Positions 1 through 49,834 of a stretch of DNA of 64,000 nt are shown here, in pieces. This DNA is from Psammoneis japonica (taxonomy: Eukaryota). The notes under the pieces are model-generated. The model did not search any database. It was not told the origin of the DNA and saw only the letters and a list, made by a program, of their open reading frames with translations. The position numbers and the translations under genes were made by a program. The stretch spans positions 1-64,000 of the forward strand of contig QPGO01000190.1 in the NCBI GenBank assembly GCA_008632985.1. Reading direction: 5' to 3'. The stretch's first letter is position 1. Every line of letters starts with the position of its first letter.

Positions 1-2200
1 ACTCTGCAGTGCAACAAATCGACATTGTTAGATGGAAGAAGGAAATGACTCAAGTTTGCAATTGCCTCATCTGTCAAAAGGGAGTTGGTGTTCAGCAAGG
101 AGTTCCTTTTGAAAGAAAAGTCTTTTCATTGTTGTTGGACATGCAACAAGGAAACAGTGGGTTGCAACAGGGGTGAACCATTGTCATGCAAACAATGGAT
201 CATGGCTGAATTGTGTGGTGCTCACCAGCGCAACAAAGAGATGATGAATGCAGCAGAAACACAAAAAAAACATGTGCACAGGCAGTTGAGCCAAAGCTCC
301 TCCAGACAATCAACTCTGACCAAGATGCTGGGCCACAAAACAAAACATTGCAAATGGTCATTCTTGACCATTGAAAAACTTGACTTTCAACCCAAATGAT
401 GGCTTTGGCAATGCCAGATTTGTGGCTGAAAATGAGCCAGTGTCAAAACATTTGTTTGGAACTTAAATTACAGTGAACACCTTGGTTGATCTCAAAGCAC
501 TTGTGACAATGTTTTTTCCATGATTTTTGAAGAATTGTGACACCTGCAGAGAGTGCAATCAAATGTGCAAATGTTTTGTGTTTCTTGGCAACCTTTCTTC
601 TCATCGAGCACAAAAAAACTTCATGTTGCAGATGAAGGAACAGTGCATGTCTTTGCCCAGTCATGCTGGTTGGGGAATGGCATCTGACAACAGCAACAAA
701 TTGCCCCTGATGACAACACAGCACACAACCTGCACAAGAAGAGATGCAAAGACAACAAGAGTGGATGTGTGTGTTGCCAAGTCATGGTTGCAAAATTGTG
801 TCTGACAGTGACAAAGGGCTTTCACAATGACAACATCCATGAGATGGCTGAGATCATCCTCCACACACTGCAAGTGTGTGAGAGCATTGGTGCTTCAGCG
901 CCCAAAAACAACTTGGAGCTGTTGGACTTTTCACATGGAAAAATGAAAGGAAGACTGCGACACAGCTCAACAAGCAGGGGCGGCCATGCCAGATGTGAAG
1001 TGCAGTGCTGGCAAAGCAAGGCAAGTTGGATGAAATGCCAAGGGCTGGAAAGGCACAGAGAGCTGGCAAAGCAGACACAAACAAAGAGGCAAACTGCGCT
1101 TTGCACAAAAAATGACAAAAAGTTTGGATTGCAACAGGAGCACATTCATTTGCCACAGCAAGGACAGCAACAATGAAGACATTGACAAAGAGGAGGCACA
1201 GACACAGGCAAAGGCAGGAGTGCTGCAAAAGACTCAGCAGCATTTTGACATCAACAAAGTGCGCAGTGTGGGTGGAGCAGCAAAAGAAGCACACCCCAAA
1301 AATGGCAAAGACCTGTGCTGTTTGGGTGCGGACTTAAAACTTGGGCCATTCATGCAAAACCAAACCAAACAGCAACCCCTCAATTGCTGCTCTGCTGAAC
1401 CCAAGTCATGATGCAAATTTGCATTCATGACAATGTGGGAAAAACCCATGGAGAGACCCTCATTTTCTGGTGACCCCAGGCTCAAATTGCTCTTGCCTGG
1501 TGTGACAAAATGACTGCCTGTCTCCATTCTTGGCACAAGAAAGATGCACACATGTGTGTGCTGTGTGTGTGTGTGCAGGAGGGGGGGGGGCTGCCTCAAG
1601 CCCTGTGGGTCATGCACTCACCTGCAAGCTGTCAACTGTGCCCAGCTCTCAGATGTTGAAGCGGCTGTGTTTGAGTCTCAAGGGGTTGAGGGCACTGGAG
1701 CAAGGACACTGGGCTGCTGCTTTCTTCTCACACAGCAGCATGGCCTGCATGTGTTTTCCACTGGCTCTCTGTTGTTCCAGAAGGGCGTTTCGTTTTTTGC
1801 AGGCTGGCAGAGGAAAGATGGATGGAGGAGCAAAGGGAGGCACAGGCAAATGGACAAGCTCACAACTTCAACATTTTTGCCAGTGCGTGTTGTGGCAAGA
1901 TTTAGAAAACAAAGAAGCATGTCAACTCAGCTGCACATGCCCAGGCACAATGGACAGAGACTGTGCAGCCCTGCTGATGTTAAAAAAAAACACTCTCTTT
2001 TCAGTTGTTCATTGATGACTCTCAGTGAGCCAGCATTTTGGAAGTGGTGGCTGTCACAAACCTTGACAATGATCACTAAGAAACCTGCCGAAAGGCTGGA
2101 CCGACACGCACTTCGGCGAGACACACTTGGCACAGCAGCACCCAGCCACGCAAGGCCCGGGCTTGGCCGGGAACAAAAAATCAATCAAGCAGAAAAGAGG
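1..2200. other. CpG- and TpA-depleted, TpG/CpA-enriched degenerate block
   Basis: Manual scan finds only about six TA dinucleotides in 1-2040 and few CG; translations lack Tyr and are rich in Cys/His/Gln; composition normalises over ~2050-2350. Confidence 0.9.
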
Positions 2201-3732
2201 TCATGACAACAGACATTATTGCTCCAATCAAAATCCAATGTGACGTGCACAACATTTATGAATGACAATATGAAGTCAGATATTTTGTCTGTCTTAAATA
2301 CAAACAACTTTTACAACGAACGAATGACTTCACAATTCCGCCAGTGTGACAGGCAGTGTGACGTCTGAGACGTTGAAGCAACGTCATTATAGGGCAATAA
2401 TAACTATACATTCATAAGGCTTTGATTAGATGAAGTTGCCAGTCGAATGTTCACTGATCACAAAATGACATCACATTCAACACAACATGTCGTCGATGGC
2501 ATCAATGGCATCACAACATAGGGAGGTGGTGTCGTTCAATCACATAGGTCTCGATCAACCACTCTCTCCTCCGTATACCCAGACAATCGGAACTATCCGC
2601 AGAGTAGAATGGCACCCAATCAAGATTCGCAACGCATGGTTTGCTTGCATGATGAGGCAGACACTGACGTGTATGTGCGAATCATGGAGAGTTGCCGACA
2701 CTTTTACACGCTCAGTAACGATGCATACGAGTACCAAAGTGAGGCCATGGGGCTATCTCCGCGCTTAGATGATGCACTTTTGGCGACTAAAACGGCGAAC
2801 TCGGCAGAGCTCACGGGGGGTCTAAATCACAAAGCAACAGCAGGAACATGTCAACCGTTCTCACAGGTGAGTTTCAATGCCAAACAAAAAAATGAAATGG
2901 ACCACATCCAAGGAACACTCATAGGCACCTTCTTCACTTTCATATGTCAGACAAGCCTCCAGAAGTCTCGCGTTCACGGTGGAGCCAGCGGCAACTCCAG
3001 AGAGCCGAACCAGAGAGGACGCTAATGCGTAATGACTCTTCGCGCGTTCCACTCGTAGCCAGTAAAAAGGCTGAACGGTACACCACGCTAGTCAGTCGAT
3101 TGGAGTAAAACTACCAGCAGTTGAATGCACGACCAGCCTATCCCGATACATAAACCCCTCATAAAAGTTAAAAATAGATGCAATTTTGAAGAGCACGATC
3201 ACTTTTCGGGCAGGAGCATCGTCAGTCTCACGCTTGCCCTCACACCTTTTTCCGTCACGTTTCTCGTTATTTGAAGGTACTATCGAAACCGGAAGAAGGG
3301 ATCTCGTTTGGTGGATTGGCGGAGTGGCCGCCAGCCGGGAAGTTCAAAGTCCACAAGCACAGCACAACCACGGATTTCCGTTCCCGATTTCCCGCGTACA
3401 GTAGCGTCTGCCCTTTGCATGCGCGTGCATCAATCTTCAATCTGCCAATCTGCTGCCATCTTTATTTCCTCGCTGCGCCTGCTAGCTCTTGCATCCATCA
3501 GTTCTGCATTCGAACTCCATCATCAGCTTCGACTAGACTATTTGCTCGACCTTGGATCTTGCTGCGTGGGGGCTTGTGGACCAACGATCATTGCGTTCGC
3601 CTTCTTGGTATTTACCTCAATACTAGTATCACCGCTATTTTGTCGCCGAAATCATTTCTTACTGATACGCTCAGGATGTTGTTCTGCATTATTTGGAAGC
3701 CTCGTCATTTCGCTACCACGTTTGTTGTAGTC

Positions 3733-5681
3733 ATGATCTTGGCGGCAGCACATCGAATTCCAGCGTTTGGGTTGATAGTTACAACATTGCAGCCATGTTG
3801 TTACGCTTGGAAGAACAAATTTTCAGCAAGTAAGATATTTGAGGCGTGGGATAAAGGGAGATTATGCTCTGCACAGTCGTCAGCTACGCAGCTCTGGTCG
3901 ACTCCAAGGCCGTCGGAGCAAGTACTCAGCTCCAAATCGAAAAAGAACGCGAGGTTCGTCGCCGTGTCGGCACTCTTCAAGAACAAAAAGGGCGGGTCTG
4001 ATTTTTCACTGCAACGCTTGGAATCGGATCCCAACTTTATTGGGCTCGTGGACCAGCGTGATCGATCTTTTGCGAGACTGCTCGTCACAACAGTGGAGAG
4101 ACGGATGGGACAAATCGACAAGGTTCTCTCGCACTGCGCAAAAACATACCCTCCCAAAAGAGTGAGTTGTCGTCTCAACGTGTACGACAAGGCTGTCAAC
4201 ATTAGACAAGCTCACAGTCTCGGACTTCACGACTGCTTTTCATTTGTACTGATTCATAGGGACGACAGGACGCCCTTGTTCAGGCGTGTCTCCGAATTGG
4301 AGCAGCTCAGCTACTTTTCCTTGATGTTCCACACCATGCAGCACTCAAAGAAACAATCGACGTTCTTAGAATGGACTCGAAATTGAGAATGCCGTGAGTT
4401 CCAAGTCGATAGAGTTGAAAGTATGACTGCCCTTCTTGCCTGTTGCAGTTCTCGGACGTGTATTATTTTTGCGTCTCCTGATACCTCAAGCTTGCTTCCG
4501 TCATGGTTTACAACAGAGAGCCAAAAATAAAGTTCGCCAATGCTGTGCTTCGAAGAATAACTCGGGAGGGATCAGACTTGCTAGAGAAGTATACTAGCCC
4601 CGAAGACAATATTTCACCTTGGCTATTGACAGAGTGGCGAAATGCTTGGGGAGAAGACAACACCGTGGCGATTGCTGCACAAATGATGAAGGAACCGCAC
4701 GTCGACCTTTCCATAAAGCGTTCACTACCAGGAGGAGAACTGGATGAGAAGTTGGCAAAAAGGATACAGTACGAGTTCGGCGATGATGCTACGCTATTAC
4801 CTCACGGCACGTTACGTGTCGGTGCAAGCATGACTGGAGTAATATCAAAGTGGCCGCTTTACGATGAGGGGTTATGGTGGGTCCAGGTGCGTTAAACGTT
4901 CATCTCAACAGATCTTCTTGAACAGATTCTATTAGATTTCATTCTCACATGGTCGCCATGTCAATCAATTACACGGCATCAGGATGCATCGGCCGCCATC
5001 CCGGCGTTGGCGTTATACAATGCCTTGGCCGCGAACGGCACTGACAGCATTTCAAATATGAATGTGGTGGACTGTTGTGCTGCTCCCGGCGGAAAAACTG
5101 CACAATTAGTGTCGATGGGGTTTCACCATGTAACTGCAATTGAATCTAGCCCAAGACGTAGCCGTCGACTGGTGGAAAATCTGGATCGATTACACATGAA
5201 CTCGGACGGGAGATGCACAGTGTGCGTTGCCGATGCGGGGGAGTGGGAGAATGACAAACGAGAGAAAGTCAGCGGAATCCTGCTCGATGTCCCATGTAGC
5301 GCAACTGGAACTGGAATGAGGCGACCCGATGTTTTGCGCAGGAACCAAGATATGGGAAACCTCCTGGAAATGCAAGAGCGTCTAGCAAGTCACGTGGCAG
5401 ACAATATCGACCAGGGCTGCATTATGATATATGCTACCTGCTCTCTTTTACCAAGTGAGAGCGAGGAACAAGTTAAGAATCTTCTGTCTAGACGTCCTGA
5501 ACACGGCGTTGCCACTATGGAAACAATTCCCTTTGTTTCTGGAGAAATGCCCGGCTTTGAAAAATGTATTGACGATAATGGTTGGTTACGGGTGCTTCCT
5601 GGGGTACTACCGGGGAGCTTGAAGAGTTGCGATGGCTTCTTTGTAGCTAGACTCCGAAGGACAAACGCCTTGCCAGTATGA
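3733..5681 (+). CDS. rsmB: RsmB/NOL1/NOP2/Sun-family RNA m5C methyltransferase with NusB-like N-terminal domain; exons 3733-4161, 4260-4392, 4517-4886, 4983-5681
   Basis: Spliced frame gives LRIGAAQLLFLDVPHHAA (NusB-like), WWVQ/DAS across an intron, DCCAAPGGKT, LLDVPCSATG, YATCS, DGFFVARL; GT-AG introns keep frame. Confidence 0.9.
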
Positions 5682-5863
5682 TAGCACTTCCTTCGCCTGG
5701 TATGGCTCATTCTACTTGTGAGGGTACGATACCGTCGCAGGGTAGTTCTTCTTTGTAGCTACTAGACTCCGAAGGACAAACGCCTTGCCAGTATGATAGC
5801 ACTCCCTTCGCCAGGTATGGCGCATTCTACTTGTGAGGGTACGATGCCGTCGCAGGGTAGCTC
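5637..5863 (+). repeat. Tandem duplication (~112 bp x2) of the last codons and 3' flank of the RsmB-like gene
   Basis: tctttgtagct..agactccgaaggacaaacgccttgccagtatgatagcac...gtcgcagggtag occurs twice back to back with a few substitutions. Confidence 0.95.
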
Positions 5864-6112
5864 TCCCGTTGAATATGGACAAAGCACCTGCGTTTCAGCC
5901 TCCATTAACGAGTACGACAGCGAGACTGTTGCATAAATCACATCGAAAACCGGGATGTGCAACTTAGGCTGCCTGCAAACTCAGCGACTTGCACCAGCTC
6001 GATGCAAGAGACCAATATTTACAAGAGGAACCACACTCTAACTCGTCTAGCACAGTCAAAAGCAAGTAGGATGTTTGTCATAGAATGGGTCCGACCCTAC
6101 GATGCACAACAT

Positions 6113-6247
6113 CTACTCTAGTAGTGCCCTCTAGTAGCTAGTTGGTTGAAGAGCAAAACGCGACAGACAGTGGACGGAAGATAGGCCCTCTACTCTAGAG
6201 AGCCTCTAGAGTAGAGACTACCTAGAGCTACTCTCTACTAGTAGTAG
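6113..6247. repeat. Low-complexity CTAG/TAG/CTA-rich tract
   Basis: ctactctagtag, ctctagtagctag, ctctagagagcctctagagtagagactacctagagctactctctactagtagtag. Confidence 0.75.
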
Positions 6248-6303
6248 GAAGTGACAACAGCTCAGAATCGAGAACAGCATCTGATCGACTCTCCGGTCGA
6301 GTG

Positions 6304-6657
6304 ATGGGGAGTGTCAACGACGATGTCATCTCCGCGGCAGCGTCCGTGAGGCAAAATTGCATACTCTTGGGTATAAAGTCAGTAGGAGTGGACTATGGGC
6401 TTTCAAGAACTGGAGTAGCTGTAACAGTGGGATATGAACCAAAACCAATAGCGATATTGGCGGACAAAAATTCAACCACGGTTGCTCAGAAAGTTGTCGA
6501 CTACAGCGTGTCGGAACAAGCGAAGCAGATCACAATTGGTCTGCCACTTCATAAAAATGGTACCGAAGCCCCTCAATCGCTTGTGACGCGAGAGTTCGCA
6601 TCAACTGTTGCTTGCTTAGCAATGGCGAGACTAGGACCTGATGTGCCACTCTATCTG
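6304..6657 (+). pseudogene. Truncated YqgF/RuvX-like (RNase H fold) nuclease fragment
   Basis: SVGVDYGLSRTGVAV and ITIGLPLHKNGTE match YqgF motifs; similarity stops at PLYL just before the expected DER motif, with no splice donor there. Confidence 0.7.
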
Positions 6658-7555
6658 CAATTCTCTATTCCCCTACATAAAGGACTAATCATCCTGGAGT
6701 CTTGCGGGGGGATCGTAGGAGAGGACGACGGTGCCTGGGTATGGGAACTTCACGGATTCTCATCGCCGAGCTTATCATCCGCTGTGCTACAGTAAACGGA
6801 CAGTAAGGAAGCAAACCAGGACAAAAGTTACCAGCTCTCCCAAAGGGAATGTATCGAAATGTGATGGTGTTTGGCATAGGAGAGGACGGTCGAAATGCGC
6901 CCCGAGAAGGTAGAGTACACACGCGAAAAGTCCAGGCTATTGTATTGCCGCCACTGTTACAGCAACCGAATTAGATCCGAGATTTAGTTCCAACAATGGT
7001 AAACATTTGTCTCGTTTCTACTTTTGTAACGCGTTAGGGCTGCTCTAGCAGAATGTCTCGTACCGTGACCTATAACATGCCGACCAAATCGGATTTCGCA
7101 CAATTATATTTCCAGTAGATACCTTTTCAAGCTACAAGTCAACTAATGGTGTGCACCAGATACACAAGGCAGTACCCGTTAACCAATGTTGGTGAATACA
7201 AATAAAAGGGCAAGCGACGTCGGTTCTAGCTAGAGGAGCCTTAGCAAAAGAAAGAATGGTGATTTTGATGTTGAGTAGGATTGCTCTATATTATATTTCC
7301 TTTCTTTGTTCTAAATTGCTGGATAGAGTAGAATTCTTCTTTTGATTACCAGTACTTCCCAACAACGATACAAATCGCATATTGAACTCTATGATCCGAT
7401 GAGTTGGTCACAACCGACTGATTCTTTTCAGTTGCTTCACCAAAATGGATCACGGTATCAGAGATACCTCTTCTTAAGAAGTAGAATTCTTCCGCAGATT
7501 CGTCACGTTGCTACGAGTCGGTAAACCAGAAACTCAGAAACTCCATTCAATCCCA

Positions 7556-8254
7556 TTAAGTTGCAATCCTTCCCTCGAGAACCCCTCTTGAAAATGTAAT
7601 GATGCCATAACACAAATAGACTCTGCCGCAGGATGAATATTGACTGACCCCTGTTTGTCCTTTTCGACGATTAGCCCAGACCCTTTCCTTGCGCTTGGCG
7701 GCTTGCACCTCTTGACGCATGCGGTGTAGAAGCGGAACATCTTCGTCCGGTCGACGTCGGCGGAGGCGGAGCTTCTTCTGAGCAGCGGGCTTTTCGCTTG
7801 TGCCAAAGCGACGTTCGTTGATGATTTTTTGACGTGCCAATGCTTGTATCTTTCGACGGTCAAAGGGTGAATCACGTTCCTTGTCCTTCGAACGTTTTTT
7901 AGTCTTGCGGACTTTGCGAATGGAGCGTTTGTAAGTGGTCATGGCGGTTTTGGGCACTTTCGTTTCACGAGAAGAGTCGTCAAGATCGTCAGAATAGCTG
8001 GCAGTGCTCGATCGCTTCCTCTTTTTATTGTTCGACCGCTCGGCATGAATCTGGATAGGAATCGTCTTGGATGGCTTGGTCTCAGGGACTTGGAAAGTCG
8101 CGACGCACGTCTTGTCGACGTTCGAAAGTTGAACGGCTTGCTTCAACGCGATGAAGACGGCAAAGGCAAAGAGCGCATGTTCGATGGGGAATGGAATAGC
8201 GCCGCCGAAGATGGTAGAGAGCGTCATGGTGAAGAGAAGAAGAGAGGTCTGCAT
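7556..8254 (-). CDS. Hypothetical protein with hydrophobic N-terminus and long Lys/Arg-rich region (3' end may be spliced)
   Basis: 232-codon ORF with protein-like composition; no recognised family. Confidence 0.5.
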   Translation of the reverse strand: MQTSLLLFTMTLSTIFGGAIPFPIEHALFAFAVFIALKQAVQLSNVDKTCVATFQVPETKPSKTIPIQIHAERSNNKKRKRSSTASYSDDLDDSSRETKVPKTAMTTYKRSIRKVRKTKKRSKDKERDSPFDRRKIQALARQKIINERRFGTSEKPAAQKKLRLRRRRPDEDVPLLHRMRQEVQAAKRKERVWANRRKGQTGVSQYSSCGRVYLCYGIITFSRGVLEGRIAT

Positions 8255-8806
8255 GATGATTGATAGTAGTAAGACGTAAGTCGATGCTTGATCAAGTGGT
8301 CAACTTCTGAATTGTGAGAGGTTCAGCGTGAAGCGTGATTGCGGTTTCGACGGCTTGCTCGGATGGGATTGCTTCGACATACTAGACTTTACGTACATTC
8401 TACGGACGAACGATGTATCGTCAAAACCATCCTTCAATCACACGAATCAAAAGCGGGCGGGCAGGTTTTGTGCACAAAATGTGATAGTAAAATGATCATA
8501 CCATACCCAACGCTGCTTGATGCGTGAAAGGCCAACAAATAAACACTCATCACTTAAGATAAGATAGATCGCGATCGATCGCTGAGAAGCACAAGGAACA
8601 AAAACTGATTTCAACTTTTTGCGAGCTATGACCTTTCATGATGACCAGACTTCGTGCAGCGAGGTCACATCCGAACATACATGTCACATTCTGGTCACAT
8701 TTTTGACGGAAACAAGTTGTTGTTGTTGGCTGTTGGCTCTTACCTCTTTCCTTATCCGTTTTATCAGGCGGAGGTCAATGTCTCGCTTTTCACAGAGGTG
8801 TAAGCG

Positions 8807-10063
8807 ATGAAGACATCTAGACTGCTAATTGCCTTCATTCTCCTACCTTTGCTCCTATGGACGATATGTTACCATTTCTTTGTTGTGTCGCGATTGCAAA
8901 GTCATCCAAAATTAAACTCAATCAGCGACTCCAACCCTCTTGATGGTGGGCTTCCAGCTGACATGCCGTTATTCATCCTGCACGTTGGCCCCCCCAAAAC
9001 AGGAACTTCTACAATTCAAGGATTCGCGGCTACTCACGATGAGATACTTCGAAAGGATAACATGTATTACCTCGGCCACTACGGAAAGAAAGCGGAGTTG
9101 AATATGCACGAGTTCTCAAACTTGTGTAGAAAGTGCGAAACAGCTAATCGAAAAGACTGCGAATGCACAAAGAAATGGGCTGAATTTGAACAACTTGTGA
9201 ATTCGCATCACTCTCAGCGTCATAACGTGATGGTTTCAGACGAAACTTTCTACAGATACAAAAATCAGAAGGATGAGAATGAGTTTCTCTGGGATCATTT
9301 GGTCCCACTGCTGAAAAACTGGCGAGTTCGAATTGTTTTTACTTACAGAAGGTACTGGGAGTGGGTACCGTCAACTTACCACCAGTCTTACAATCCTGCT
9401 GGAAAGAAAAGGAAGGAGACCAGAGAGACCTGGCCGGATACTGGCGGTCTTGTAATCCCAGATTTCCCCATGTTTATGGAAAAGTTCATTGTCGCGGATC
9501 CAAAGCAGCCAGTGGCCTTAAAGAAGAAATGGGACGATCACTTTTCCAATATATGGGTGTTCAATATGCACAGCGACGGTCCATTCCTGAGAAACTTCTT
9601 CTGTCGTATGGTTCCCGAGGCACCCACGCTTTGCTCGCAGCTCCGATCGCAGCCCGAAGAAATTACTAAGAATCCATCATCATCAAAAATACTACATCAC
9701 GACATGTTGGCAGTCAAAGCCTACAAACGTGGCTTGATAAAGGCAGGCCTAACTCGAACAACGGTGAACAAGGCTGTTCGGAAACACGCTGCCGCAAGTG
9801 GCTTGTTAGCGTCATCAGATTTTCCTCAAAAATGTCTGTCGAAGACACAAGCTGAGATGTTCTTGAAGAAATCCCTAGAAATGGAAAAGAAAATGGTTCC
9901 AAAATTCTATATAACAACGGAAGGAGAAGCGGATTTGCGAGTTAAATTCGCGGAAGCAAACAAGAATGGAAAGTTCTGTTCAGTTGACGTGGACAAGGTC
10001 TTGGAGGACAAGAAATGGCAATCATTTTTCAGAGACCTAGGATCCAACATTGCGGAGAAGTAA
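8807..10063 (+). CDS. Type II membrane P-loop/sulfotransferase-like protein
   Basis: 418 aa intronless ORF; N-terminal TM anchor; LFILHVGPPKTGTSTIQ, VSDETF and IVFTYRRYWEWVPSTY motifs. Confidence 0.85.
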   Translation: MKTSRLLIAFILLPLLLWTICYHFFVVSRLQSHPKLNSISDSNPLDGGLPADMPLFILHVGPPKTGTSTIQGFAATHDEILRKDNMYYLGHYGKKAELNMHEFSNLCRKCETANRKDCECTKKWAEFEQLVNSHHSQRHNVMVSDETFYRYKNQKDENEFLWDHLVPLLKNWRVRIVFTYRRYWEWVPSTYHQSYNPAGKKRKETRETWPDTGGLVIPDFPMFMEKFIVADPKQPVALKKKWDDHFSNIWVFNMHSDGPFLRNFFCRMVPEAPTLCSQLRSQPEEITKNPSSSKILHHDMLAVKAYKRGLIKAGLTRTTVNKAVRKHAAASGLLASSDFPQKCLSKTQAEMFLKKSLEMEKKMVPKFYITTEGEADLRVKFAEANKNGKFCSVDVDKVLEDKKWQSFFRDLGSNIAEK

Positions 10064-10319
10064 AAGCAACTATAGAACAACTTAACTAGATTAGCAAGTC
10101 AGAACCACGAGTACTTACGGTAGCCGTGATGCAGAGAAAAAGTGAGTGGATAAGGTCACGCGCCGGCATAGCAATGACCGATGCATGACCTTTCGGTTCT
10201 CGATGACCCGAGACATTTTGATTTTTCCCGCCTCTTTTTCTGGATTTCTCAGTCACTCAAAGCGTCAACAACAACAAACCGGACACCATCAACATCGTCC
10301 GCTGTACTGATGAGAGAAA

Positions 10320-12622
10320 ATGCTACGTTATCTGTTAATTGCGAGTGTCATCATTGGAGCCCAACTGCTTGTTGTACTCAATGATGATGTTCGCAAACGG
10401 CTCCACATTATTGCAATGGGCCATTCTCCCTTTGTGAAGAGGCAAGCCGATTCACCCATCTCGTCACTCCAACGCAGCGAAGTCAACCACGACGCTCCAC
10501 TGTTCGTGCTACATATTGGGCCTCCAAAAACAGGAACGTCCTCCATTCAAGGATATGCAAACCAATACGAAGACTTGTTGAAGGAAGATAACATCTATTT
10601 TCTCGGTCACAACAGCAAGCGCAACGAGACGAGGCTTCATGAACTCTCAAAGTTCTGTCGAAAATGTGACACGGTGCATCTGTGTTCCCAATGCCCAGAA
10701 AAGTGGAAAACTTTTGAAGAGATTGTTGATCAACATTTCAGGCTGAATCACACAGCGTTTGTTTCTGATGAAACGTTCAACCGCTTCTTCAATGATGGAG
10801 AACAGTATGAACGAGACCAGCTATGGAATCGACTAGAGCCAATACTTTCACGGTGGCGTGTGCGTGTGATTTTTACGTACAGAAGGTACTCGGATTGGTT
10901 GCCTAGCACATATCATGAATTCTACAACCCAAACAATAAGGCGCAAAAGGATAAATGGCCGGATGAAGGCGGTGCAGGAGTCATACCTACCTTTCCCGTC
11001 TTCTTGGACCGCTGGATTCTCAGCAACAGCGAGAACACTCGTGGAAAGCAGCCATTGACAATCAAGCAGAAGTGGCAAGAACACTTCCCGAATGTTCTGG
11101 TTTTGAATATGCACCACGGTAAAGGCCTACTTGAAGAGTTTTACTGTCGTATGTTGCCCGAGGCGACTCGACTATGTGACCATATTAATTCTGGCGCCGA
11201 ATCATTGATGAAGAATCCATCTTCTTCGAAGCTTGTGCATTACGACATGATTGCTGTGGCTGCGTACCAAAAGGGTTGGATCGGCAAACAGTTTGCAAGG
11301 GACGACGTAGCTGAAGCTGTCAGACAAAAGTCTCTGGAGCTTGGCTTGCTGGAGGAAAGAGACTTCCCACTAGCATGCCCGACAGAGGAGCAGCAGCGTC
11401 TTTTTCTCAACGCGTCTTTGAATCTTGAAGTTGAAGTACTATCAGAGCCTCCCGCAAATAAAGACGAGGTAAAGGAGCAATTTCTAGAAGCATTAGATGC
11501 TGGAAAATTCTGCTCGGTGGACACTGAGTCGTTGCTTAAGAATGAAATATGGCAGGATTTCTTCGAAAAGCTCGATCCATCTTCCATGCAAACCAAAATT
11601 GCTACCCCTTCTCCAGCTTTGAAGAATCCTGATAAAGTCATTGCATCTCTGGAAGTGAAGGAGATCAAGAGCGCGGCTGTCGGGGATGGATCAGCATCCA
11701 GCATGACATCGTCGTCCCAGCGTCGGCCGTCGTCCATGCTATGTCTGTATACTGGCGATGAAGGTAGCACCGTTCTGTCAGAAGCATTGCGGTTACATCC
11801 GCAAGTATACAGTCCTAGCTGGGCTGTTGAACCAGCCAACGCACGCTACTGGAGAAAGGAACCATTTACTTTGAAGTCACAGATTGAGGCAATCCGCTTT
11901 TTGTTGCGACTGCCCAGCAGCATCACCGTATATCAACACCGAAGGAAGCCCTTATCCCTGGAAGAATACAAAGAGAAAGTTGGTAATGCTAGGGCAACGT
12001 ACATAAAGGTTGCTGTTTGCAAAAAGCTAAAACACGACGAGTGGAAGGCTTGCATGGACGAAATCGTTTCCAATCTTCTCTGTGGCAACAAAGGAGAGAT
12101 TGTCGAGCACTTGATACTCCCCGTCCGCTACGGTTTTGACCGCGCATGCAGTGTGTTCGTTCATCGAGATAAGCAACTCTACAAGGCAAACTCACAATTT
12201 AGTTCTAATTCGACAAAGGGGAATGATGGTGCGACATCGGAACTGTCAGAGCAGGATGCGACCGTGTTGCGAAAAGCTCAGAGCTCTACGTCAAAAACTT
12301 CATCACGACGGTCAATCTGACTCGAACGACTTGTCCAGAGCAGGAAAATCGACCCCAAGTTCATATTTTTGATTACGACCATGCAAAAGAGATCGGAATT
12401 GAAACCGCCTTGGAGCAACTGCTTGGTGACCTTGGACTTAGAACAAAGGCGGGAGACTTGAACCTGGGCAGGTTCAGCACGCGAAAGCCAGGCGACTATT
12501 GTAACACTATGTTCGACAAGAAGTCAAAACGGACTATGAAGGGTCAAGAGACCATGTACAATGTGTGGCTGAGTGGCACATGTGAGATGGGTGGGGATCT
12601 GCCGTGGTGCAAGAAGAAGTAA
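10320..12622 (+). CDS. Paralogous sulfotransferase-like protein with a second C-terminal domain; probable frameshift near 12225
   Basis: LFVLHIGPPKTGTSSIQ, VIFTYRRYSDWLPSTY, KFCSVD align with the upstream paralogue; second domain starts LCLYTGDEGSTVLSEALRLHPQV; another frame is open 12227-12622 and reads as protein (HIFDYDHAKEIGIETALEQLLGDLGL). Confidence 0.8.
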
Positions 12623-12766
12623 CGCGGCTATCTCCATCAACGAGAGTCTTGCGCGTACAGTACTACAATTATTTGTACTCTGATCTTATGCGGGGTATCA
12701 CGAAGAATTGGTTGGCCTTCTTTGAGGAGTGCAGCTGCTTTGATCGATCTTCGGTAAAACGCATAG

Positions 12767-13530
12767 GAGGCCTTTGTCACGGTCCATGATTATGACATTG
12801 TCTTCGAGGTTCTGGTCATCAATTGTACTCTCAACACACTAGCCAACTTGACGGTGGAGCTTGCCACGATGGGTGACATGAAGACTATCAAACGCCCGCA
12901 GTCTCGAAATATTGGCCCTCTTGATCGAGTTTGAATAGGAAACTCAGCTCAATTACATTGTCGAGTCGACCAACATGCGTTACCTCACTCCGCACGACAC
13001 GACGGAAACGGGAAGCTTCCTTGCCGCCAACCTCTACGCAAGAAGGTAAGACAGCGTTTGTTCTCGATGCGCGCTTGCCGATTGTTTCCCGGTTTCGCGT
13101 TGGATACTGCATCACACGCTTTTTCATGAGAGTGTCTGTTAATACCGGGAGAAAGAACTTCTCGCGAAACTGTCGCCACAGACAAGGTGCCTTGCGACGC
13201 ATTCAGCACTATTGCATGCACGAGAGCGTGCCCGTGTGGGATCAGATTACGCGTACTTTAACGCGTTGGTGTATCATGTCTATTAATTTGCTGATACAAC
13301 TCGAGTTTCGTAGTCTTTGAACTGCCAACTAACACAAGCGTGCTTTCGTTGTTTTTGTATTGTCTCTGGCGAAGATGCCCTCGTTAATGTTTCGATCGAG
13401 AAGAAGGACGACAATGATGGCAAGTAGGCTGTGTACAAACGAACTCGTTCCAAGACGCAAGGTATTGCTCCGAGTTTGGGGGATCACATCACCAGCGTTC
13501 AGAGATCCACGCCCGAAGCCAAGCAGTTAA
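12767..13530 (+). pseudogene. COPB1: Coatomer beta subunit (beta-COP) C-terminal appendage relic
   Basis: Manual translation: EAFVTVHDYDIVFEVLVINCTLNTLANLTVELATMGDMKTIKRPQ (from 12767) and GEDALVNVSIEKKDDNDGK*AVYKRTRSKTQGIAPSLGDHITSVQR (~13370-13505); in-frame stops; N-terminal part of the gene absent. Confidence 0.85.
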
Positions 13531-14486
13531 AAAATAAAATGGGATGGAGAACACAGAGTATATTGTAAACTGATAGATACCACTTCTTCAGACACTGCAT
13601 GAACTAGCCGCACTGGTATGTAGACTACCGTATGTTGATCCTGCTCACTACTAGAGGCTTCGCTACCTCGGTTTGGTTCCCGGACTACTATACCACGAGA
13701 GGGTCGATCGCTTCCTTGACGCCAATCGGGAACGGGCCATAGAAAAAGAACCGCTAGGTTGGGCATTATCAAGTCTCTCGTAATATATATGGTTATTTAT
13801 GGGGACCCATTAGAACAAGAACATTTTGAAAAGCTACATGAATATGAATAACAAAGTTCTATAGACGCCACGGAATGGTTTCCTTCGTTTACTACCATAG
13901 AGAGGAGCCGCTATCCTTTCTAACGCATATACAAAGCCATTCCGTGACGCCAATACTTACCTTAATATTTCCATTCTTCCACAGTCCATTCTCCGCATCC
14001 GAAATAAGTAAAGGGTTTTGGTTCATTGACTACCGCGGGTCTTGAGCAAATACAGAGTCGCCGAGTCGTTAAAGCACCAATCATGCCTGGTACAAATTTT
14101 GTTCCGGAAAACATAAGTCGCGGGGCGGGACCCACTGTTACTTGAACCTTGGTACTTTAACAAAGACTGACTGCCGCATCGCTTCAAGTCGGGTGGTCGA
14201 ACCGGGGCATAGTGTGTGATTCTATGTTGTGAAATGAAAACGGAAAGCAAGGTCAGTAAACAAGTTTCAAATGAAAATGGAAAGGAGGCACGGAATTGAC
14301 TTACATTGGGGGTGCATTCGAATGTAACGGAACGCGACGAATGCACCCCATGGTATTTTGAATTGCACGACAAATTCGTGCAATGTTGGCGAGTCTTTGA
14401 TGCGCATAAAAGTTGCATTGTAACATGAAATGGAAACGAGAGATGCCCCAATGCAAGCTCAGTTTCCAATGGTCCAAAACAAGCAG

Positions 14487-16589
14487 TCAATGAGCCTGGC
14501 GGCGACTCATGATCCTCGCGGATCTACGCACGACACGCCCAGCATTAGACGATAGAAAGACGCTGCCCGTTGCTCCACCGAGCCTGGGCGAGCGTCTCAA
14601 AAGGACAGGTTGGGTTTGTTTCTCCTCGTTTCTCACGACAGCGACAACATCAACCGGATCATCATTTTCAACTGGAAACTCAGCGTTCTCCAAACTTTGA
14701 CCCTCTCCTTCTGGAACAATTTCATGTTGCACTAACCCATTGTCCACAGGCTCCTCCCCGTCGTCCATCGGTTCTTCCTCACCCAGAGGACCATTCAAAA
14801 GACATTGTTAGGCTCCTTGATTGCATTCTCCACAACAGCAGGAGCCACTTCCTCCATGGCCATCGGCTCCTCATTCACAGCTGCCGGCACAGCTGGGACC
14901 TCATTCAATGCATCATCAGGCTCCTCGATTGCATTCTCCACAACAGCAGGAACCACTTCCTCCACAGCCATCGGTTCCTCATTCACAGCTGCCGGTGCAG
15001 CTGGTTCCTCACTCAAGGCATGTCAGGCTCCTGATTGCATTCTCCACAACACAGCAGGACTGCTTCCTCCACGGCCATTGGCTCCTCATTCACAGCTGCC
15101 GGTGACACCGGCTCCTCATTCAATGCGTCGTCAGGCTCCTCAACAGCAGAAACCACTTCCTCCACAGCCATTGGTTTCTCATTCACAGCTGCCGGTGCAA
15201 CCGGTTCCTCATTCAATGCATCGTGAGGCTCCTCGACTGCATTCTCCACAACAGCAGGAACCATTTCCTCCTTGGCCATTGGCTCGTCATTCACAGCTGC
15301 CAGTGCAACCGGCTCCTCACCAGCTTCAAGAGCTGAAACAACTTCCTCCACAGCGATTGGAATGCTGATGTTGGCGTCGGCCGGTTCAATGGCCGCTGGA
15401 GTCCGCACCCATCCACGCCAATGATGACACCTTGGATGCACTTGACATTCACAAATGCATTGGTCTTGAACGCGGTCAAACTCAAGCCATGCCACAGCCA
15501 ATTGCTGTTCATTTAGGGTGGGAATGATGTGGGTGCAACGTGGACGTCAGATTCCTCTTGGAACAGCCATGCTGGTTGGGACTGGAGGAGCATCGCCAAC
15601 GCAAATGTCTTGAACCATCAAGTGGTCAGGTCTCCATCTAACGCACCCATCTCTTGGAACAACAACAGCCTCGGCCAGTTCAATGGCTGCCAGAGTCTGC
15701 ACCCATCCACGCCAATGGTCACATCTTGGGTGAGTTTGACATGCATGAGTGTGCGGGTTTTGTTTCAAGTCAAACTCAAGCAGCGCCGCAGTCAACTGCT
15801 GATCATTCAGGAGGGGAACAACCCGAGTGTAACATGGATGTCAAAGAACAGGTTCAGCAACCATGCTGGTTGGGATTGGAGGAAGGTCACCGACAAAGAC
15901 ATTCTTGCTCAGGTCTTCATCCGGCAGCCACTCTGAATGCGCTGACGACACTGCCGAGCCAGCTCGTCATGCTCCTCGTCGATTCATCTCAATGCAAAGT
16001 CCAACCTCTGACCCAACAGCACTGGAATCTTGGTCGCATGCTTTGGATGTCGAAGAACTTTTGGAGCAGCCATGCCGGTTGGGACGGGATGATCGTGGGC
16101 ACCGCACAGGTTCTGCAGTCCGGCAGGTCTCCATCTGACATGCACACGACAAAAGCATTTGTGTTTCAAGAAGAGCAGCCAAGGTGAAATAAACCGCAAA
16201 GGAACACATGTGGCACAATGCATGGTCCATGCAGCCACTGCAACCACGAGAGTGGCAGCAACTGCATCGCACGCTCGATCCCAGAGAAGAGTGGCAAGGT
16301 CGTCAATTTCCACAATTCGGCAGTGCAAGAAATGGACAGTGATGCCAATCAACTTCAACAAGGAACATACAAACACCACAGCAAGCAAAGCAAGGAGAGC
16401 TGTACAGACTGCAAGCACAAAGGACGCCAATTCCTCAATCATGCAGCGAATCTTGTCAACGGCAACGCACGAGAAAATCCACAATTCCCAAAGCAAACCG
16501 CTGACGATTCGGCCGTGGTTCTGCTTACCGTGAAATGCACGTAGCAGAAGATTCATAAAGAGAATGAGTAGTGCAATGTATGCAATCAT
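14487..16589 (-). pseudogene. Disrupted gene: N-terminal TM segments, internal repeats, acidic repeats and a basic C-terminal RRSxRL...RRSARI motif
   Basis: ORF pieces 15984-16589, 15547-15795, 15013-15501, 14795-15016 and 14487-14798 form one colinear reading broken by stops and frameshifts; interior is TA/CG depleted. Confidence 0.7.
14790..15360 (-). repeat. Degenerate tandem array of ~100-110 bp units encoding PAAVNEEPMAVEEVVPAVVENAIEEPDDALNEE
   Basis: tcattcacagctgcc and gcattctccacaac recur several times. Confidence 0.9.
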
Positions 16590-19500
16590 ATTGGGGTGAT
16601 AGTATCAATAAAGATAGATTGGTAATGACAGTGTTATTGTTGCAAGCAAAACTTGAAATTGTGTGGTGAGCGTGACGGTCGCTCGTTATTGTGTATGTCT
16701 GGCCCATTCGTGAATGCGTAGAGACTGTACTGGAGAAGCCCGTAGGAAATCCGACGAGTCCAGTTCGCGATTTTCGATTTCGCGGGATGGGGGCACGTTT
16801 GCATCCGGTTACTCGTAGGCTCTTGGTAGAAACAATCAGAGGCCGAGACGGATATTGCTTTTCATTCGTAATGAATGCTATCTACTTATCGCTATTCTGC
16901 AATGTTCCGGAACAAGATATCGTACTTGACGTGGGAGCAACAATGAACAAGACGCGTCGCGAGGAAAAGCACTGAAAACCAACTTGGAGACGCCACCAAT
17001 GATGACTCGTATCCACATTCAGTCAACCTCGACTTCCTGAGCTAGCTCAACAAATACTACCCCAGTCGATTGCGCTACAGAAGAATGCGCTTGTACCTGT
17101 TGAGAAAGAGACATTTCGGAGAAAAGAGGCTCTGAGACTGCGTGCCCGCTACGTGCCTTATCTTGAAATCATCCTCTGTCGTCCCTTTTCACGAACCTTC
17201 TTTCCCATCTTTCACGGCAATGCTCCCTTCAAATAACACTGGCAACGGGACCTTCACAGCGTCAAATCGAGTTGTGCGCTCGACCCAAATACTACTCACA
17301 ACATGTTCTCTCAAAGCCATCTGTTGATCTCATGATGGTAAGTATGGACTCGCAGGCAGCCCATTCTTTCGCTCGATGAAAATCGTTCATGGAGATCCTT
17401 ACCGTCCTGAAGTCGAGGAGTTGAACCATTCGGTATTCGTACCAAGTATGTTCAAAGCACCAACCAGCTCCGACGACCATTGGACGTAAAGGTGAAAATG
17501 ATGAGGATGGAGGGCTTCGAAAGATTTCTTCAAGATACACCGCAAAATGACTGAAATTTAGCAGTATGATCTTAATCATCGCCTCCAGCTGCCCACTATT
17601 GTCACCAAGCAACATAAAAATAAGTTGCCCATTGACATGTAAGGCCAATTTTGTACCTTGAGTGCATGGCTGTCCACAGTGTCAACTTGAACGTGGCCGT
17701 ACAATCCAAGAGAGCAGCCAGTCCATTGATTTCCTGATTTCAGTTGCTCAATTCTCCTGTTGCGTCTAGCCGTTCTTCAATGCTGCAGCTAGAACATCCT
17801 CATTCATTTTATACGGTACTGGTATGGTGCACGAAGCGGATGATGCACTGAATAAGACTGATGGCCCGTCGACTCGTTTCGTCACTATAGTTTGTGCATA
17901 CGATTCTTGAAACACAAGAGACAGAGTTACCAAAAAAAGTACGGTCGACAATACAAAGAGACGGACATGTTGTGACCACCAGCAACGTCTGTCTCTGCGT
18001 TCTGCGACAGCGCCAGTGTGATTTTTCACATCATACAATAGAGTTATTCGCTGGAGTAACGTTCTTCTTGAATAGAGAGTACGTGTACAGCTCCAGCACG
18101 TTATGATAACTTTGGGATAAGCAAGCGCATACATCGCTTTGAAACAATACATAATAGGGCCCTACATAAGGTGCTGCAATAAGCTGCCATTTTCGCCGCT
18201 CTTTGGTCGAAGATGGGGATAAGGTGTTTGAAGGCGGGCATGCTGTTGAGGAGCTCCCGACAGGTGTCGCGTGAGCATTCATTGAAAAAGTTGAAGTGGT
18301 AACCTACCGGTATGTATGGTAGCGTTGCGTGATGGCGCTGGATGCAGCTGATAAGGTGAATTCTGGAGCTCGGACCTCGTCATCGAAGCGGCAGTTTCCT
18401 ACGACACGATACGACGTACAGTAGAGTGTACGTAGGAATTGGTAATAAATTTGAAGATAGCAGGTTCTCACGCATCTTTTACATACGAAATCATGGTATT
18501 AATTCTACAAAGCTACACAAAAATGATAGTGATTGAGAAATTTAGCAACGGTCATGACACAAACAAAATCTCTCGAAATTCTTTCGCGCTCTTTTCGATC
18601 GATCACAACTCGTGGTCTTGCACGATGACTTGTTGTTTGCCAAGCCGGAATGCCGCAATCGCCAAAGGATGGCTCGCCCTTCCTCTGGATTGAGACCTTG
18701 CATTTGTTTGGCATTCCACAACTCATTTTGCTTTATGGCGTGTTGTCTCTAGGTGGCGTAGGTGTTGCCAGTTAAGTCCGGAGGTCGGGGCAAATCGAAT
18801 GCGTGTCTCCGGCCTGGAGTCCATGTTACTCCTGTGTCTTTGACCGTAGGAAGTTGCCTGTTCGCTTGACCCGTCAGGTCACGGCTGTTGAAACAGACAG
18901 CAGCGTTCGTCTGCGAAGCAGCAAAAGCTCGCCAAGCAGATCATACCGTTGACGGAACGCGGGGTTTGGGGTTCCGTCGTATCAGTGACATGATACGGTA
19001 AGTCTTCACTCGTAGGGAGTGTTGATTTAGCACGCGGTTGATTCGCAAGTTTTCTTGTTGTCTCCGTAGTACGTCCCCCCTTTTACATTTTTTAGAGTGA
19101 TATTTTTCACTCTGAAGATATGTAAAAGCTTGAGCTCCATCTTTTGATGGCGCTCTTGAGGCAATGTTACCCTACGCGACCGATTTCATTAGCTACTTTT
19201 GATTTTGGTGGGTTTCAATTTTTTGAAACACGCTTTGAACTTTACCAATAGAAGTAGAAAGACTAAGAGTACGGCATATAGGAATCTTTAATTGGGCGTT
19301 ACTTATTCCGTACGTACGTCTATGGACTGCGATGACGGTCGTACCTTAGCGCTTGCGGAATCGCTGTCGTCGTTTCTGTTTTTCGTACACAATACCCCTC
19401 CTTTCAACTGTGTTTAGGGTGGTCCTTTGCTTTCTTTCCTGGCCTCCAAGCTGGGGGAAAGTATGCCCCAAATCTCTCGTCGAAACGCGTTGGACCATGT

Positions 19501-40575: not shown

Positions 40576-43500
40576 ATTTTTTAGAGCGGGACCAGCAATC
40601 GTCGAGACACTACGTACAGGCATCTCATAGGTTTCCTGCTCCACCAGAAATTACACCAAAATTGACCAGCAGAGATTCGTGACGCAAGGTGGTTAATGGG
40701 CTTGGATCTGAAGCTCCTACAAGAGATGTCAAACTGATGCTCGTCATGACTCATGGAGGATGCAACGGTAAAACTTCATGACAGTGCCATCGCGTGGGAT
40801 CCAACATGGCCTCGTGAACTGGACGTCAACGTAGGACGGTGCATTTCTCTGAACGACATTCTTGAGTGAAGCGAGCCGGTGAGTTTAGCATCGTTGCACC
40901 CAGTTCGCTGCTCGTAATCCCTGCGGGAGAACTCAAGGGTGGCACATTCTGGATCTTCTGCTTCGACCTGGAGGCCTGAAGGACATATTTTTTTCTTGAC
41001 GCTGAAAGGTCATCTCGACTCGTGCAACCGGCAGAGAGCCTTTGCGGGATCGACAAAATACACGAAAGAACTGACGAGCGACAGAAAACAGCTTTTCAGC
41101 AACCTCAAACCGATGCTCTTCTTTTGCTTTTTGATCAAGTTCTGCAGTTGTACTTCTATTTCTAAAACCAACATGGACTTAATATTCTAAGACCAAACAT
41201 GGCTGCTATCCTTCACGACTTGTTGACTCATCGGTACGTACGCCATTGTGCACTCCGCATTTTTTGGGGGGGGCAGGATGTCGTCAGTCCGTCGCTTCTC
41301 CGTCAATTTGAACAATCGCTGTAGGTGGCATGTGGTCAGTTGACTAGATTGTAAAGAACAACATGGCCAATCAAACCAGGTTGCTTTCTCTAGGGCTGAG
41401 TGCTTTTCTGGGGGCTGAAAAGCTCTGCAGCCAATCACCTGACTTTTCGAAAAACTCACTCCAAAGAACCCCTCATCTGGCTGGGATGCCAACAATCTGG
41501 TGCTGGGTCTGTGACCGCCTGTGCTGCAATCCGGGCATTTCCTGACTGCATCCCAGACAAGTGTCTCTCATTGAGTCAGGTGTTCTTTTTAATTTCAGTT
41601 CAGAACCAATTTGGTCTACAGGCTCCTTGATTCTAAATTGCACCCTGGAGCCTGCTTTGACCAGCGGCCATTCTTGCCTCTGCAGCCCCACGTTTGGCCT
41701 TTCTTGATCATTGTGTTTGGTCGCTCCTTCATTTCATCTCATGCTGCATGTGATGCAACATCAGCACCTGAAATGTCCTTCTAAATTGCATCCATTTGCA
41801 GCCCAACAAACAGCATGGTAAGTTTCTCATTGTCACAATGAAGCAATTGCAGTCAAAGCAAAACCATGAGACTTGGCAGCCTGCGCACCTTTGCTTCCTG
41901 TTGCAACATTCCTGAGGTCTGAAAGCTTGGGGAAGAATCTCTGCAGCTGTTGTTTCTCTCTCAAATCATCTGCCAAGGGAAGGCCAAAGGATGCCATTGT
42001 GAACAAGTGTCTGGATGACTTGCCTGGCATCAAATGAACAGAAGGGACCTTTGCTTGGCATCAAACAGCTGCTGAATGCAGCGGACCTTTGCTTGGTGTC
42101 AAACAAATGCAACCACCTGTGCTCAGTGTTGAAGAATGAATGTGATGTGCCTTTGCTCAGGATTGAATGAACATGGTGCACCTTTGCTGGGGATCAAATG
42201 AGTGCCTCACTTTGCTCAGCATCAAACGAATGTGACAGACCTTTGCTCAGAGTCAAATGAGTTGAATTTGAATTTCACAATGGAGCTTCACAAACACACT
42301 TTGCAGTCACTTGGCTCTTCATCTCATCCTTGTTCTTTTCACTTCAAGAACTCTAAAATCAGCACTTTGTCAAACCCAGACTGGATCAGGATGACACATT
42401 GTTTTTGGCAAAGTTCATGCCTGCAACTGGAGGCACTTCTTTTTATGAAAAAAATCAAAACACTCTTGGCAAATGAGTTTAGAGAGCTGGATAAAAGATC
42501 ATGCAACAGCAGCAGAAAAGTTGGTGCACAAACACCAGATGTGTGTCTTGGGGAAACAATGAAGTTTCTGTTTGCTCTGACTTTTCTGGATCACTGAAAC
42601 TCAGGAAGCTTTGGAAGACACTGGACAGAATGGGGCGGGGCTTCCATTTTCAAAAAACAGTGAAAGCACTTGCATGCTCTTTTGTCTGCTGTGGCTTTGA
42701 CTGTTTCATCAATTTGCCTGTCACCAATCAATTGTTCAACACAACAATTGCTGGCAAGTGCCAGTGCCCCATGGACTTTTGACAACAGAATCAAGCAACT
42801 TCAATCTTTGAGCACATGGCTCTGCCCTCTCCAGCAGGGAGCACTGCAGCTTGAGAAACCTGCAGCATCAGCTGCACACACCAACAAAAGCAAAGCAGGA
42901 GTGGCCCTGTGCTCTCTGAATCTTGCCACTGGGGTCCCACAGGAGCTGTTTCTGTCATCCAAAGAACCATTCATTGTGCACGACTTCATGTCCTCAAGTG
43001 GAGTTTCAAGATTTTGCAAAGTTTGCTGTCACATCCAGCACAAAATGTCAACTAAAATGCATGCAAACTGTCTCTTTCCTCATGCATTGCCAGCTCTCAA
43101 ACTCATTGGTGTGATGGAGCATTTTGACATGGTTGCCCCATTTCACCCACTGGAAGAACCAACATTTCACACTCCTTTGTTGCTTGTTCATCTCAAAGAT
43201 GTGCTCCACTTTTGCAAAAAAATCATCATCATCAAGTCCTTCCCTGATGAGGGCTTTGATTGCTCCATTGCTGAACTTCATGTTGGTCCTGCATTTGACA
43301 CAACACAGAGCTTGTTCACAAAAGCAGTTTTGTGGCTTTGTTTTGTGAGCATTTGTCAGTCATCAGTGCCACATCATCTCAATGGGCAGCAGCAGGCTCT
43401 GCAGGGTGCTTTGCCACCTCCGGGCACAAGTGCAACCTTGTCATCTTGGTGCCTCAGTGATGAAGGATGAAATTTCATCTCAGGCTGAAAGCTCAACTTG

Positions 43501-46443: not shown

Positions 46444-46449
46444 TGTGAT

Positions 46450-46660
46450 CCTTGTGAAGAGTCCCCACCCTTGGTTTCCCAAGTTTTGGTTGTGGATTTT
46501 TCATTCTTGATTTTGGTGTGAATTGCTCAAAATTGCAGTTGACAATGTTCCGCCATCACAGAGAATGTGCAGAGGCTTGTTCTTTGCTTTGCCCAAAGAG
46601 GTGCTCACATGAGTGATGACTGCTGGACTGGTGTGAATTGCTTTTTTGGGGCTTCCCAAT
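46450..46660 (-). mobile_element. Degenerate retropepsin-like aspartic protease fragment, probably from a Ty3/Gypsy LTR retrotransposon
   Basis: TSLGKAKNKPLHILCDGGTLSTAIL followed by KSTTKTWETKGG resembles the ILxDSG protease motif and flap; abuts the gap. Confidence 0.5.
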
Positions 46661-49802: not shown

Positions 49803-49803
49803 C

Positions 49804-49834
<31 letters not shown>

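Follow-up and report, generated by a model that had tools for sequence, protein, structure and literature searches.

The window analysed here, a 64-kb stretch of the genome of the diatom Psammoneis japonica, consists of a gene-rich core flanked by DNA in which the dinucleotide TA has been almost erased. Dinucleotide content was measured as rho and scanned in kilobase windows. The core (2041–41550) has ordinary dinucleotides, with a TA rho mostly between 0.45 and 0.95 and a CG rho of about 1, and serves in this analysis as the unmutated baseline. The Pfam domains found in the core are those of the Topo VI-B transducer, Fe-hydrogenase, diphosphomevalonate decarboxylase, S26 peptidase, and RsmB/F methyltransferase; these are ordinary eukaryotic housekeeping proteins. 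The nearest named relatives of the diphosphomevalonate decarboxylase come from the raphid pennate diatoms Seminavis, Haslea, and Nitzschia (71–77% identity). A TA-poor island lies within the core at 14600–16500, where eight TAs are left, CG is partly retained and the sequence contains tandem repeats of 93–108 bp. Core counts were taken over 2041–14500 and 16600–41500, with 14501–16599 and 41501–41550 omitted.

Both TA and CG have been almost erased from the left block (1–2040) and the right block (41600–50500), which retain six and 26 TAs, respectively. The left block has a TA rho of 0.04–0.05, a CG rho of 0.11–0.13 and a TG/CA rho of 1.8–2.1; the right block is interrupted by a run of Ns at 45734–46443. 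Across these two saturated blocks, kilobase windows have a TA rho of 0.00–0.08, a CG rho of 0.03–0.31 and a TG/CA rho of 1.7–2.3, the last rising to 3.2 in two windows that span the N run. The DNA at 50501–64000 is also TA-depleted, with 67 TAs left, and is variable in CG, which is retained at 51001–55500 and 62501–64000 and eroded at 55501–62500. The transition is abrupt on either side of the core, at about 2040 and about 41550, and the depletion leaves the genes of the core intact.

The depleted blocks at 1–2040 and 41.6–64 kb are probably non-genic, partly repeated DNA. With so few TAA and TAG triplets, such DNA is expected to contain long open reading frames (ORFs) by chance. A Pfam search of 28 ORFs from the depleted DNA found no transposon or viral domain and no convincing family. 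The CG-retaining parts of 50501–64000 appear to be multi-copy by summed contig depth in one public DNA run. One repeat lies on the forward strand at 51405–51707 and again, truncated by the end of the window, at 63698–64000. These two copies are 95% identical, and the differences between them include TA versus TG, TG versus CA, and one CG versus TG.

Where have the lost dinucleotides gone? In 23.7 kb of depleted DNA, the gain of TG/CA (1753) matches the combined loss of TA and CG (1755), both being two-strand counts relative to core density. The calculation assumes that the depleted DNA once had the composition of the gene-rich core, an assumption that the mass balance supports for dinucleotides only; single contexts depart from it, as in the excess of GTGC (246, compared with 102 predicted). 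On other contigs of the same public DNA run, at least 12 sites that read TG or CA in the window carry TA. Together with rho and the balance, these sites indicate that the changes are confined to TpA and give TpG or CpA.

The loss of CG closes the same balance jointly with that of TA, in keeping with a decay to TpG and CpA. In the CG-depleted DNA, 89 CGs are left where 821 would be expected. Ordinary CpG decay by deamination of 5-methylcytosine (5mC) appears from these counts to have run alongside the loss of TA; methylation of diatom transposons by DNMT5a has been described (PMC9998398). The first-pass annotation of this DNA had noticed by eye that GCG was over-represented among the survivors, and the counts bear this out: of the 89 CGs that survive, 53 have a G before them, compared with 481 of 2082 (23%) in the core. 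The bias also differs between the strands, with GCG found 33 times ahead of a base other than C and the complementary arrangement seven times (p = 4e-5).

Surviving TAs and the direction of the change

Which TAs have survived? The six in the left block are TTAG at 29, TTAA at 464, TTAC at 469, TTAA at 1335, TTAG at 1903, and TTAA at 1981. Five of the six thus have the form YTAR (binomial p = 5e-4 for this block alone), as the annotation had said in describing them as mostly TTAG or TTAA with a single TTAC, and all the TA coordinates that it listed are present in the sequence. It had also extended the bias to the right block. Here, 18 of the 26 TAs are YTAR, three are YTAY, five are RTAR and none is RTAY, so that the extension holds. 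RTAY is absent from all 32 TAs of the two saturated blocks, accounts for six of the 67 at 50501–64000, and makes up 505 of 1583 (31.9%) in the core. The corresponding figures for YTAR are 34 of 67 at 50501–64000 and 247 of 1583 (15.6%) in the core; four of the eight TAs in the island are YTAR.

The excess of YTAR is significant against two different baselines. For the saturated blocks (23 of 32), Fisher's exact test against the core gives p = 4e-12, and a first-order Markov expectation derived from the depleted DNA itself is 11.4 (p = 5e-5). For all depleted DNA (61 of 107), the values are p = 1e-20 against the core and p = 5e-7 against a Markov expectation of 35.4. The core, where the annotation had expected no such bias, has none; its YTAR share is 14.6% inside long ORFs and 16.5% outside them. 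The surviving TAs sit in unrelated local sequence and are therefore not copies of one repeat unit.

Control loci were taken from metagenomes, around homologues of the core decarboxylase (80 loci, 772 kb). Among the 60 of the 80 fetched loci that have at least 100 TAs, the YTAR share ranges from 0.08 to 0.32. No 1-kb window in the 80 loci combined a TA rho below 0.25 with a TG/CA rho above 1.4.

The survivors alone cannot separate a pyrimidine after the changed A from a purine two positions before it, and the classes of product were used for this reason. At 51001–55500, where CG is kept, the mixed contexts YTAY and RTAR have lost 18.0 per kb; YTGY and RCAR have gained 19.2 per kb, and RTGR and YCAY only 2.4 per kb. 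In the same interval, a loss of 12.4 RTAY per kb is matched by a gain of 12.4 RTGY and RCAY. YTGY/RCAR exceeds RTGR/YCAY in each of three distinct blocks (Fisher p = 4e-9, 0.003, and 0.001), and all four mixed tetramer pairs shift in the predicted direction. The lost YTAY and RTAR therefore reappear as YTGY and RCAR, and not as YCAY and RTGR, which means that the changed A is the one before a pyrimidine.

Other measures give the same polarity. A comparison of predicted with observed product excess over the 16 contexts gives a correlation of r = +0.57 if the base at +1 (the first base 3' of the changed A) decides and of r = -0.46 if the base at -2 decides. GpC is up and ApT is down in the depleted DNA, as TAC>TGC and GTA>GCA predict. 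Where a TY 5' flank is protected and the 3' flank is sensitive, the ratio of TG to CA is 771:505 in depleted DNA and 663:721 in the core (p = 1e-10). On the strand of the A, TAY becomes TGY, and on the other strand RTA becomes RCA.

Can single events be polarised directly? The 12 usable events from the other contigs come from 40 listed of 538 differing places. In seven of the 12, the changed strand is the one with the faster fitted rate (rates are given below), or in seven of 10 when two TATA events are set aside, the fitted TATA rate being an optimiser bound; under a simple Y/R rule, four of six mixed sites agree. These events are few and mildly supportive of the rate rule. Repeats within the window have too few sites with TA still present in one copy to be polarised, and columns with TG in one copy and CA in the other were left out of the count, as their ancestor could be TA or CG. 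Runs tests of RTGY against RCAY found no strand-coordinated tracts in five depleted blocks (z from -1.7 to +1.1), which is expected at saturation.

Rates, the +2 position and independent half-sites

The annotation had predicted that RTAY would be the most depleted context, with RTAR and YTAY intermediate and YTAR near normal. The order is as predicted, the pooled densities relative to the core being 0.023 for RTAY, 0.048 for YTAY, 0.086 for RTAR, and 0.36 for YTAR. The last value (0.34–0.38) does not fit the idea of near-normal YTAR, which is depleted about three-fold. The proposal of a TAY>TGY lesion stands as far as its polarity is concerned, which the product classes support; the notion of a TAY target that leaves YTAR untouched is too simple, since YTAR is depleted and the position at +2 also matters. 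The rule is better stated as the loss of TA unless a purine and then A follow, fastest when a pyrimidine follows.

The 16 NTAN counts agree with a two-strand model in which the strands are hit independently of each other, with one rate for each base at +1 (goodness of fit p = 0.06–0.25). For A, G, C, and T at +1, the product of rate and time is 0.25, 0.87, 1.79, and 2.56, respectively. Loss is strongly dependent on context, in agreement with the annotation, and a uniform rate is rejected with p = 4e-27; four separate rates also fit better than a plain split into pyrimidines and purines (p = 1.5e-5). Under that plain split, the pyrimidine rate exceeds the purine rate about 5.3-fold in the saturated blocks (2.82 compared with 0.53) and about 3.6-fold in the less advanced DNA at 50501–64000 (1.82 compared with 0.50). 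A palindromic RTAY recognition site with synergy between its flanks was also considered and is unneeded, as a model of independent half-sites fits.

The second base 3' of the target contributes about as much information as the first. A occupies +2 in 122 of 214 strand views of the survivors, compared with a Markov expectation of 65 and with 27% in the core. Likelihood ratio tests for adding +2 to the model (3 df each) give chi2 = 83 for the pooled data, 58 for the saturated blocks, and 35 for 50501–64000. The +2 rule was spotted post hoc in the pooled data, and recurs in each of the two separate blocks; the effect is estimated from the survivors alone. Whatever the base at +1, A at +2 raises survival several-fold: relative to the core, survival is 0.44 for TAAA and 0.09 for TAAG, 0.25 for TAGA and 0.04 for TAGC, and 0.13 for TACA and 0.016 for TACT. 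TAGC, TAGG, and TAAG vanish at almost the speed of TAY, and TACA is slow. Only TARA, a purine followed by A, is nearly immune.

At the combined level of +1 and +2, the product balance failed to close, since the flanks are in many cases targets or products in their own right; closure values spanned -1.4 to 3.7 across contexts. Coarser half-site classes were used in its place, a half-site being TARA on either strand (it reads TYTA on the other). At least one half-site is present in 30 of the 32 survivors of the saturated blocks and both halves are present in 11 of the 32; in the core, the numbers are 386 of 1584 (24%) and 23 of 1584. Five of the six TAs at 1–2040 have a half-site, and the share in the 60 metagenome control loci is never above 45%. 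The density of TAs relative to the core rises with the number of TARA halves. In the saturated blocks it is 0.006 with none, 0.19 with one, and 1.75 with two; at 50501–64000 the values are 0.055, 0.27, and 0.96. TYTARA, which is protected on both strands, is not depleted in the saturated blocks, where it occurs 11 times compared with 6.3 expected. Examples are TTTAGA at 1901–1906, TTTAAA at 48487–48492, and TCTAGA at 48692–48697. The two half-sites act independently of each other.

A candidate adenine deaminase and rival readings

What kind of process leaves such a footprint? It is likely that a TpA-specific change of A:T to G:C has worked strand by strand on the non-genic blocks, with its context set by the bases at +1 and +2, and that the agent was an adenine deaminase. 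On each strand separately, the A of 5'-TA-3' would be changed to G, a change seen as TA>CA on the opposite strand, at a rate governed by the two bases 3' of the target A. The fastest targets would be those with a pyrimidine at +1 and a base other than A at +2 (TAYB); TARB and TAYA would be slower, and TARA would have a rate near zero. The process would have run nearly to completion on the blocks, alongside the decay of CpG. A TA persists only while both strands resist, and hence the survivors are TYTARA together with, temporarily, sites that have one TARA half; such a mixture looks like YTAR.

The agent would be an enzyme that contacts the bases from -1 to +2 around the target adenine. We infer that it is probably a polynucleotide adenine deaminase of the TadA/ADAT type that acts on DNA and is aimed at silenced repeats. 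An enzyme that grips a short piece of one strand around a flipped-out adenine would be expected to demand T at -1, to respond by degrees to the bases at +1 and +2, and to act on each strand independently. That repeats are the target is suggested here by the summed contig depth. A more far-reaching proposal is that diatoms possess a natural DNA adenine editor, reading T-A-Y-B and refusing T-A-R-A on either strand of silenced DNA, as a form of genome defence; this is offered tentatively, with less than even confidence.

Could the T be attacked instead of the A? A T-to-C change at 5'-B-R-T-A-3', decided by the bases 5' of the T, would fit every count, as the sequence cannot separate A-to-G from T-to-C on the opposite strand. 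No T-to-C editing chemistry that follows a dinucleotide rule is known to us. Polynucleotide adenine deaminases that need a 5' U or T and also make 3' contacts are on record (PMC10661471), and attack on the T is considered unlikely.

Alternatively, there may be no editor, and TA may have been lost spontaneously in silenced chromatin, for example by hydrolytic deamination of adenines that are N6-methylated or poorly stacked, with 3' stacking setting the context. The protective effect of a purine and then A on the 3' side is what stronger stacking would, by our reasoning, predict, and CpG decay proceeds in the same blocks. However, the near-total and sharply bounded loss, with a TA rho of 0.04 beside one of 0.55, far exceeds ordinary decay, and TA goes before CG in the younger-looking, multi-copy parts. 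As for N6-methyladenine (6mA), eukaryotic 6mA is described as lying at ApT on active genes, being absent from transposons and seemingly barely mutagenic, and the same source gives only 5mC for Phaeodactylum (10.1101/2024.10.28.620566). Spontaneous loss is for these reasons regarded as quite improbable.

The weakest reading, that the remaining TAs are not survivors at all and were newly made or kept by selection in blocks that may never have had normal TA, can draw on the pyrimidine that C-to-T change at YCA would place before new TAs, on the count of TYTARA, which is not below that of the core, and on some fitted TAAA rates that are negative, but is very hard to sustain given that a uniform origin from the CA/TG pool would give YTAR in 23% and A at +2 in 26% of cases where 57% is observed for both, that the product classes independently show a forward polarity, that the loss of TA matches the gain of TG/CA while other copies retain TA, and that the survivors lie in unrelated sequence without recognisable function. 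Context-dependent creation of TA, for example at dipyrimidines, may nevertheless have contributed.

For the adenine deaminase, the rule has practical consequences. It narrows the search for the enzyme to one that would require T before the A, favour a pyrimidine at +1, refuse A at +2 and treat the two strands independently. TYTARA could serve as an internal unmutated standard for dating and mapping the process across the genome. A natural DNA adenine editor would bear on how algae defend their genomes and would also be of interest as a supply of base-editing enzymes.

Comparison with known systems

A literature search for TpA hypermutation in diatoms or for A-to-G genome defence returned only a preprint on the alga Bigelowiella natans and papers on the fungal process of repeat-induced point mutation (RIP). 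RIP changes C to T at CpA, enriching TpA and depleting CpA and TpG. The locus described here has the opposite signature, with TpA depleted and CpA and TpG enriched. RIP, as described for Neurospora and other ascomycetes (PMC7296669), ruins repeated DNA and shares with this locus dinucleotide-directed transitions that form sharp tracts beside intact genes. By contrast, RIP creates TpA from CpA by C>T, and the process in this window destroys TpA by A>G. If the proposed diatom editor exists, its chemistry would be the reverse of that of RIP and the rule at +1 and +2 would be its fingerprint.

ADAR enzymes also convert A to I, which is read as G, and prefer U before the A. Their preferred context is given as 5'UAG (Table 1, PMC10661471), with G favoured at +1, whereas in the window a G at +1 gives a lower rate than C or T (0.87 compared with 1.79 and 2.56). 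Contrary to 5'UAG, TAGA is among the most protected contexts in the window, at 0.25 of its core density. ADAR edits double-stranded RNA, while the change in the window has become fixed in both strands of the DNA. The ADAR-type preference for a 3' G is absent and is thereby excluded; a four-base palindromic recognition site is also argued against.

A closer likeness is found in the TadA/ADAT family, for which the natural context of TadA/ADAT2 is written 5'ACG (Table 1, PMC10661471). U or T precedes the target A, C is at +1 and G at +2, which places this context in the fast class TAYB of the window. The footprint agrees with this pattern in that only TA is lost, the bases at +1 rank T>C>G>A, and A at +2 protects while G, C, and T do not. 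Among the DNA base editors derived from such enzymes, one variant of TadA-8e is said to prefer YAC (PMC13109818). There are also differences: T at +1 is here at least as good as C, TAGC and TAGG are fast as well, unlike in the TadA context, and the natural TadA/ADAT2 enzymes act on tRNA loops. The resemblance to TadA/ADAT, which the annotation had called an analogy, is a likeness of footprints only.

The nearest parallel is the hypermutation reported in Bigelowiella natans, where TpA-restricted changes affect integrated giant-virus and virophage DNA (Mettrop et al., bioRxiv 10.64898/2026.01.13.699255). The authors describe A>G and T>C changes almost exclusively, all of them at TpA and giving TpG or CpA, with 231 de novo TpA mutations and a rate about 1000 times background, and they propose an ADAT2-like deaminase. 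In both Bigelowiella and this DNA, the outcome is regional, with TpA-poor clusters rich in CpA and TpG. The two cases differ in that Bigelowiella is a rhizarian alga in which the process has been seen in real time, while the diatom offers a footprint only, and in that the Bigelowiella targets are integrated viral DNA, while the 28 ORFs tested in the depleted DNA of this window are devoid of recognisable viral and transposon domains. The words "context", "trinucleotide", "tetranucleotide", and "flanking" are absent from the main text of the preprint, so a rule for +1 and +2 is not stated there. The rule adds a new detail to a process for which this preprint, on another lineage, is the one known account. 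If the mutations in Bigelowiella follow the same rule, the system would be common to distant algal lineages.

Order of TA and CG loss in the depleted DNA

In 50501-64000, CG loss lags behind TA loss, and in two stretches (51001-55500 and 62501-64000) most TA is gone while CG is near-normal. Summed contig depth, taken from the contigs of one public DNA run, is several-fold higher at these two stretches and at 46444-47615; by this measure, all three resemble younger repeats present in multiple copies. The copies of a direct repeat, 95% identical and 12.3 kb apart, lie at 51405-51707 and 63698-64000, the second being truncated where the window ends. Several of the differences between them are TG versus CA, or TA versus TG. 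The pair may consist of two repeat copies or may mark the two ends of a single long element. The TA-depleted, CG-keeping block also holds a 234-bp tandem array (53844-54543; three copies, 85% matches), contained in a stop-free frame of 529 codons on the minus strand (53149-54738), for which comparison with Pfam returned no convincing family.

Tetramer excess and the surroundings of surviving TAs

Across all depleted DNA (1-2040 and 41600-64000), NTGC/GCAN tetramers exceed the prediction from mass balance, in which the gain of TG and CA is set against the loss of TA and CG relative to core density. The excess is +246 for GTGC (102 predicted) and +234 for CTGC (142 predicted). This surplus implies either that GTAC and TAC were commoner in the ancestral DNA than they are in the core, or that a further process has added to these tetramers. 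A weaker composition signal is seen five bases from the surviving TAs: C occupies -5, and G occupies +5, in 36% of strand views, the core figure being 22% (chi2, halved, is 15). This may reflect chance or local composition.

Strand asymmetry of surviving CpGs

In the CG-depleted blocks (1-2040, 41600-50500, and 58001-62500), G precedes 53 of the 89 CpGs that are left, with TGCG and AGCG as frequent forms. Survivors on the plus strand are asymmetric: GCGA, GCGG, and GCGT number 33, versus seven for ACGC, CCGC, and TCGC (p = 4e-5), and the asymmetry is present in all three blocks. Strand-symmetric decay is ruled out as its source, being unable to yield a strand bias. Nor do the totals of TG and CA account for it, being balanced.

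A TA-poor island in the core

Surrounded by otherwise normal gene-rich core, the island at 14600-16500 has only eight TAs in 1.9 kb, with CG partly retained. Tandem repeats of 93-108 bp and overlapping ORFs occupy the same stretch. The island may be no more than an effect of composition; alternatively, it could be a tandem repeat of coding sequence struck by the same TA-erasing process.
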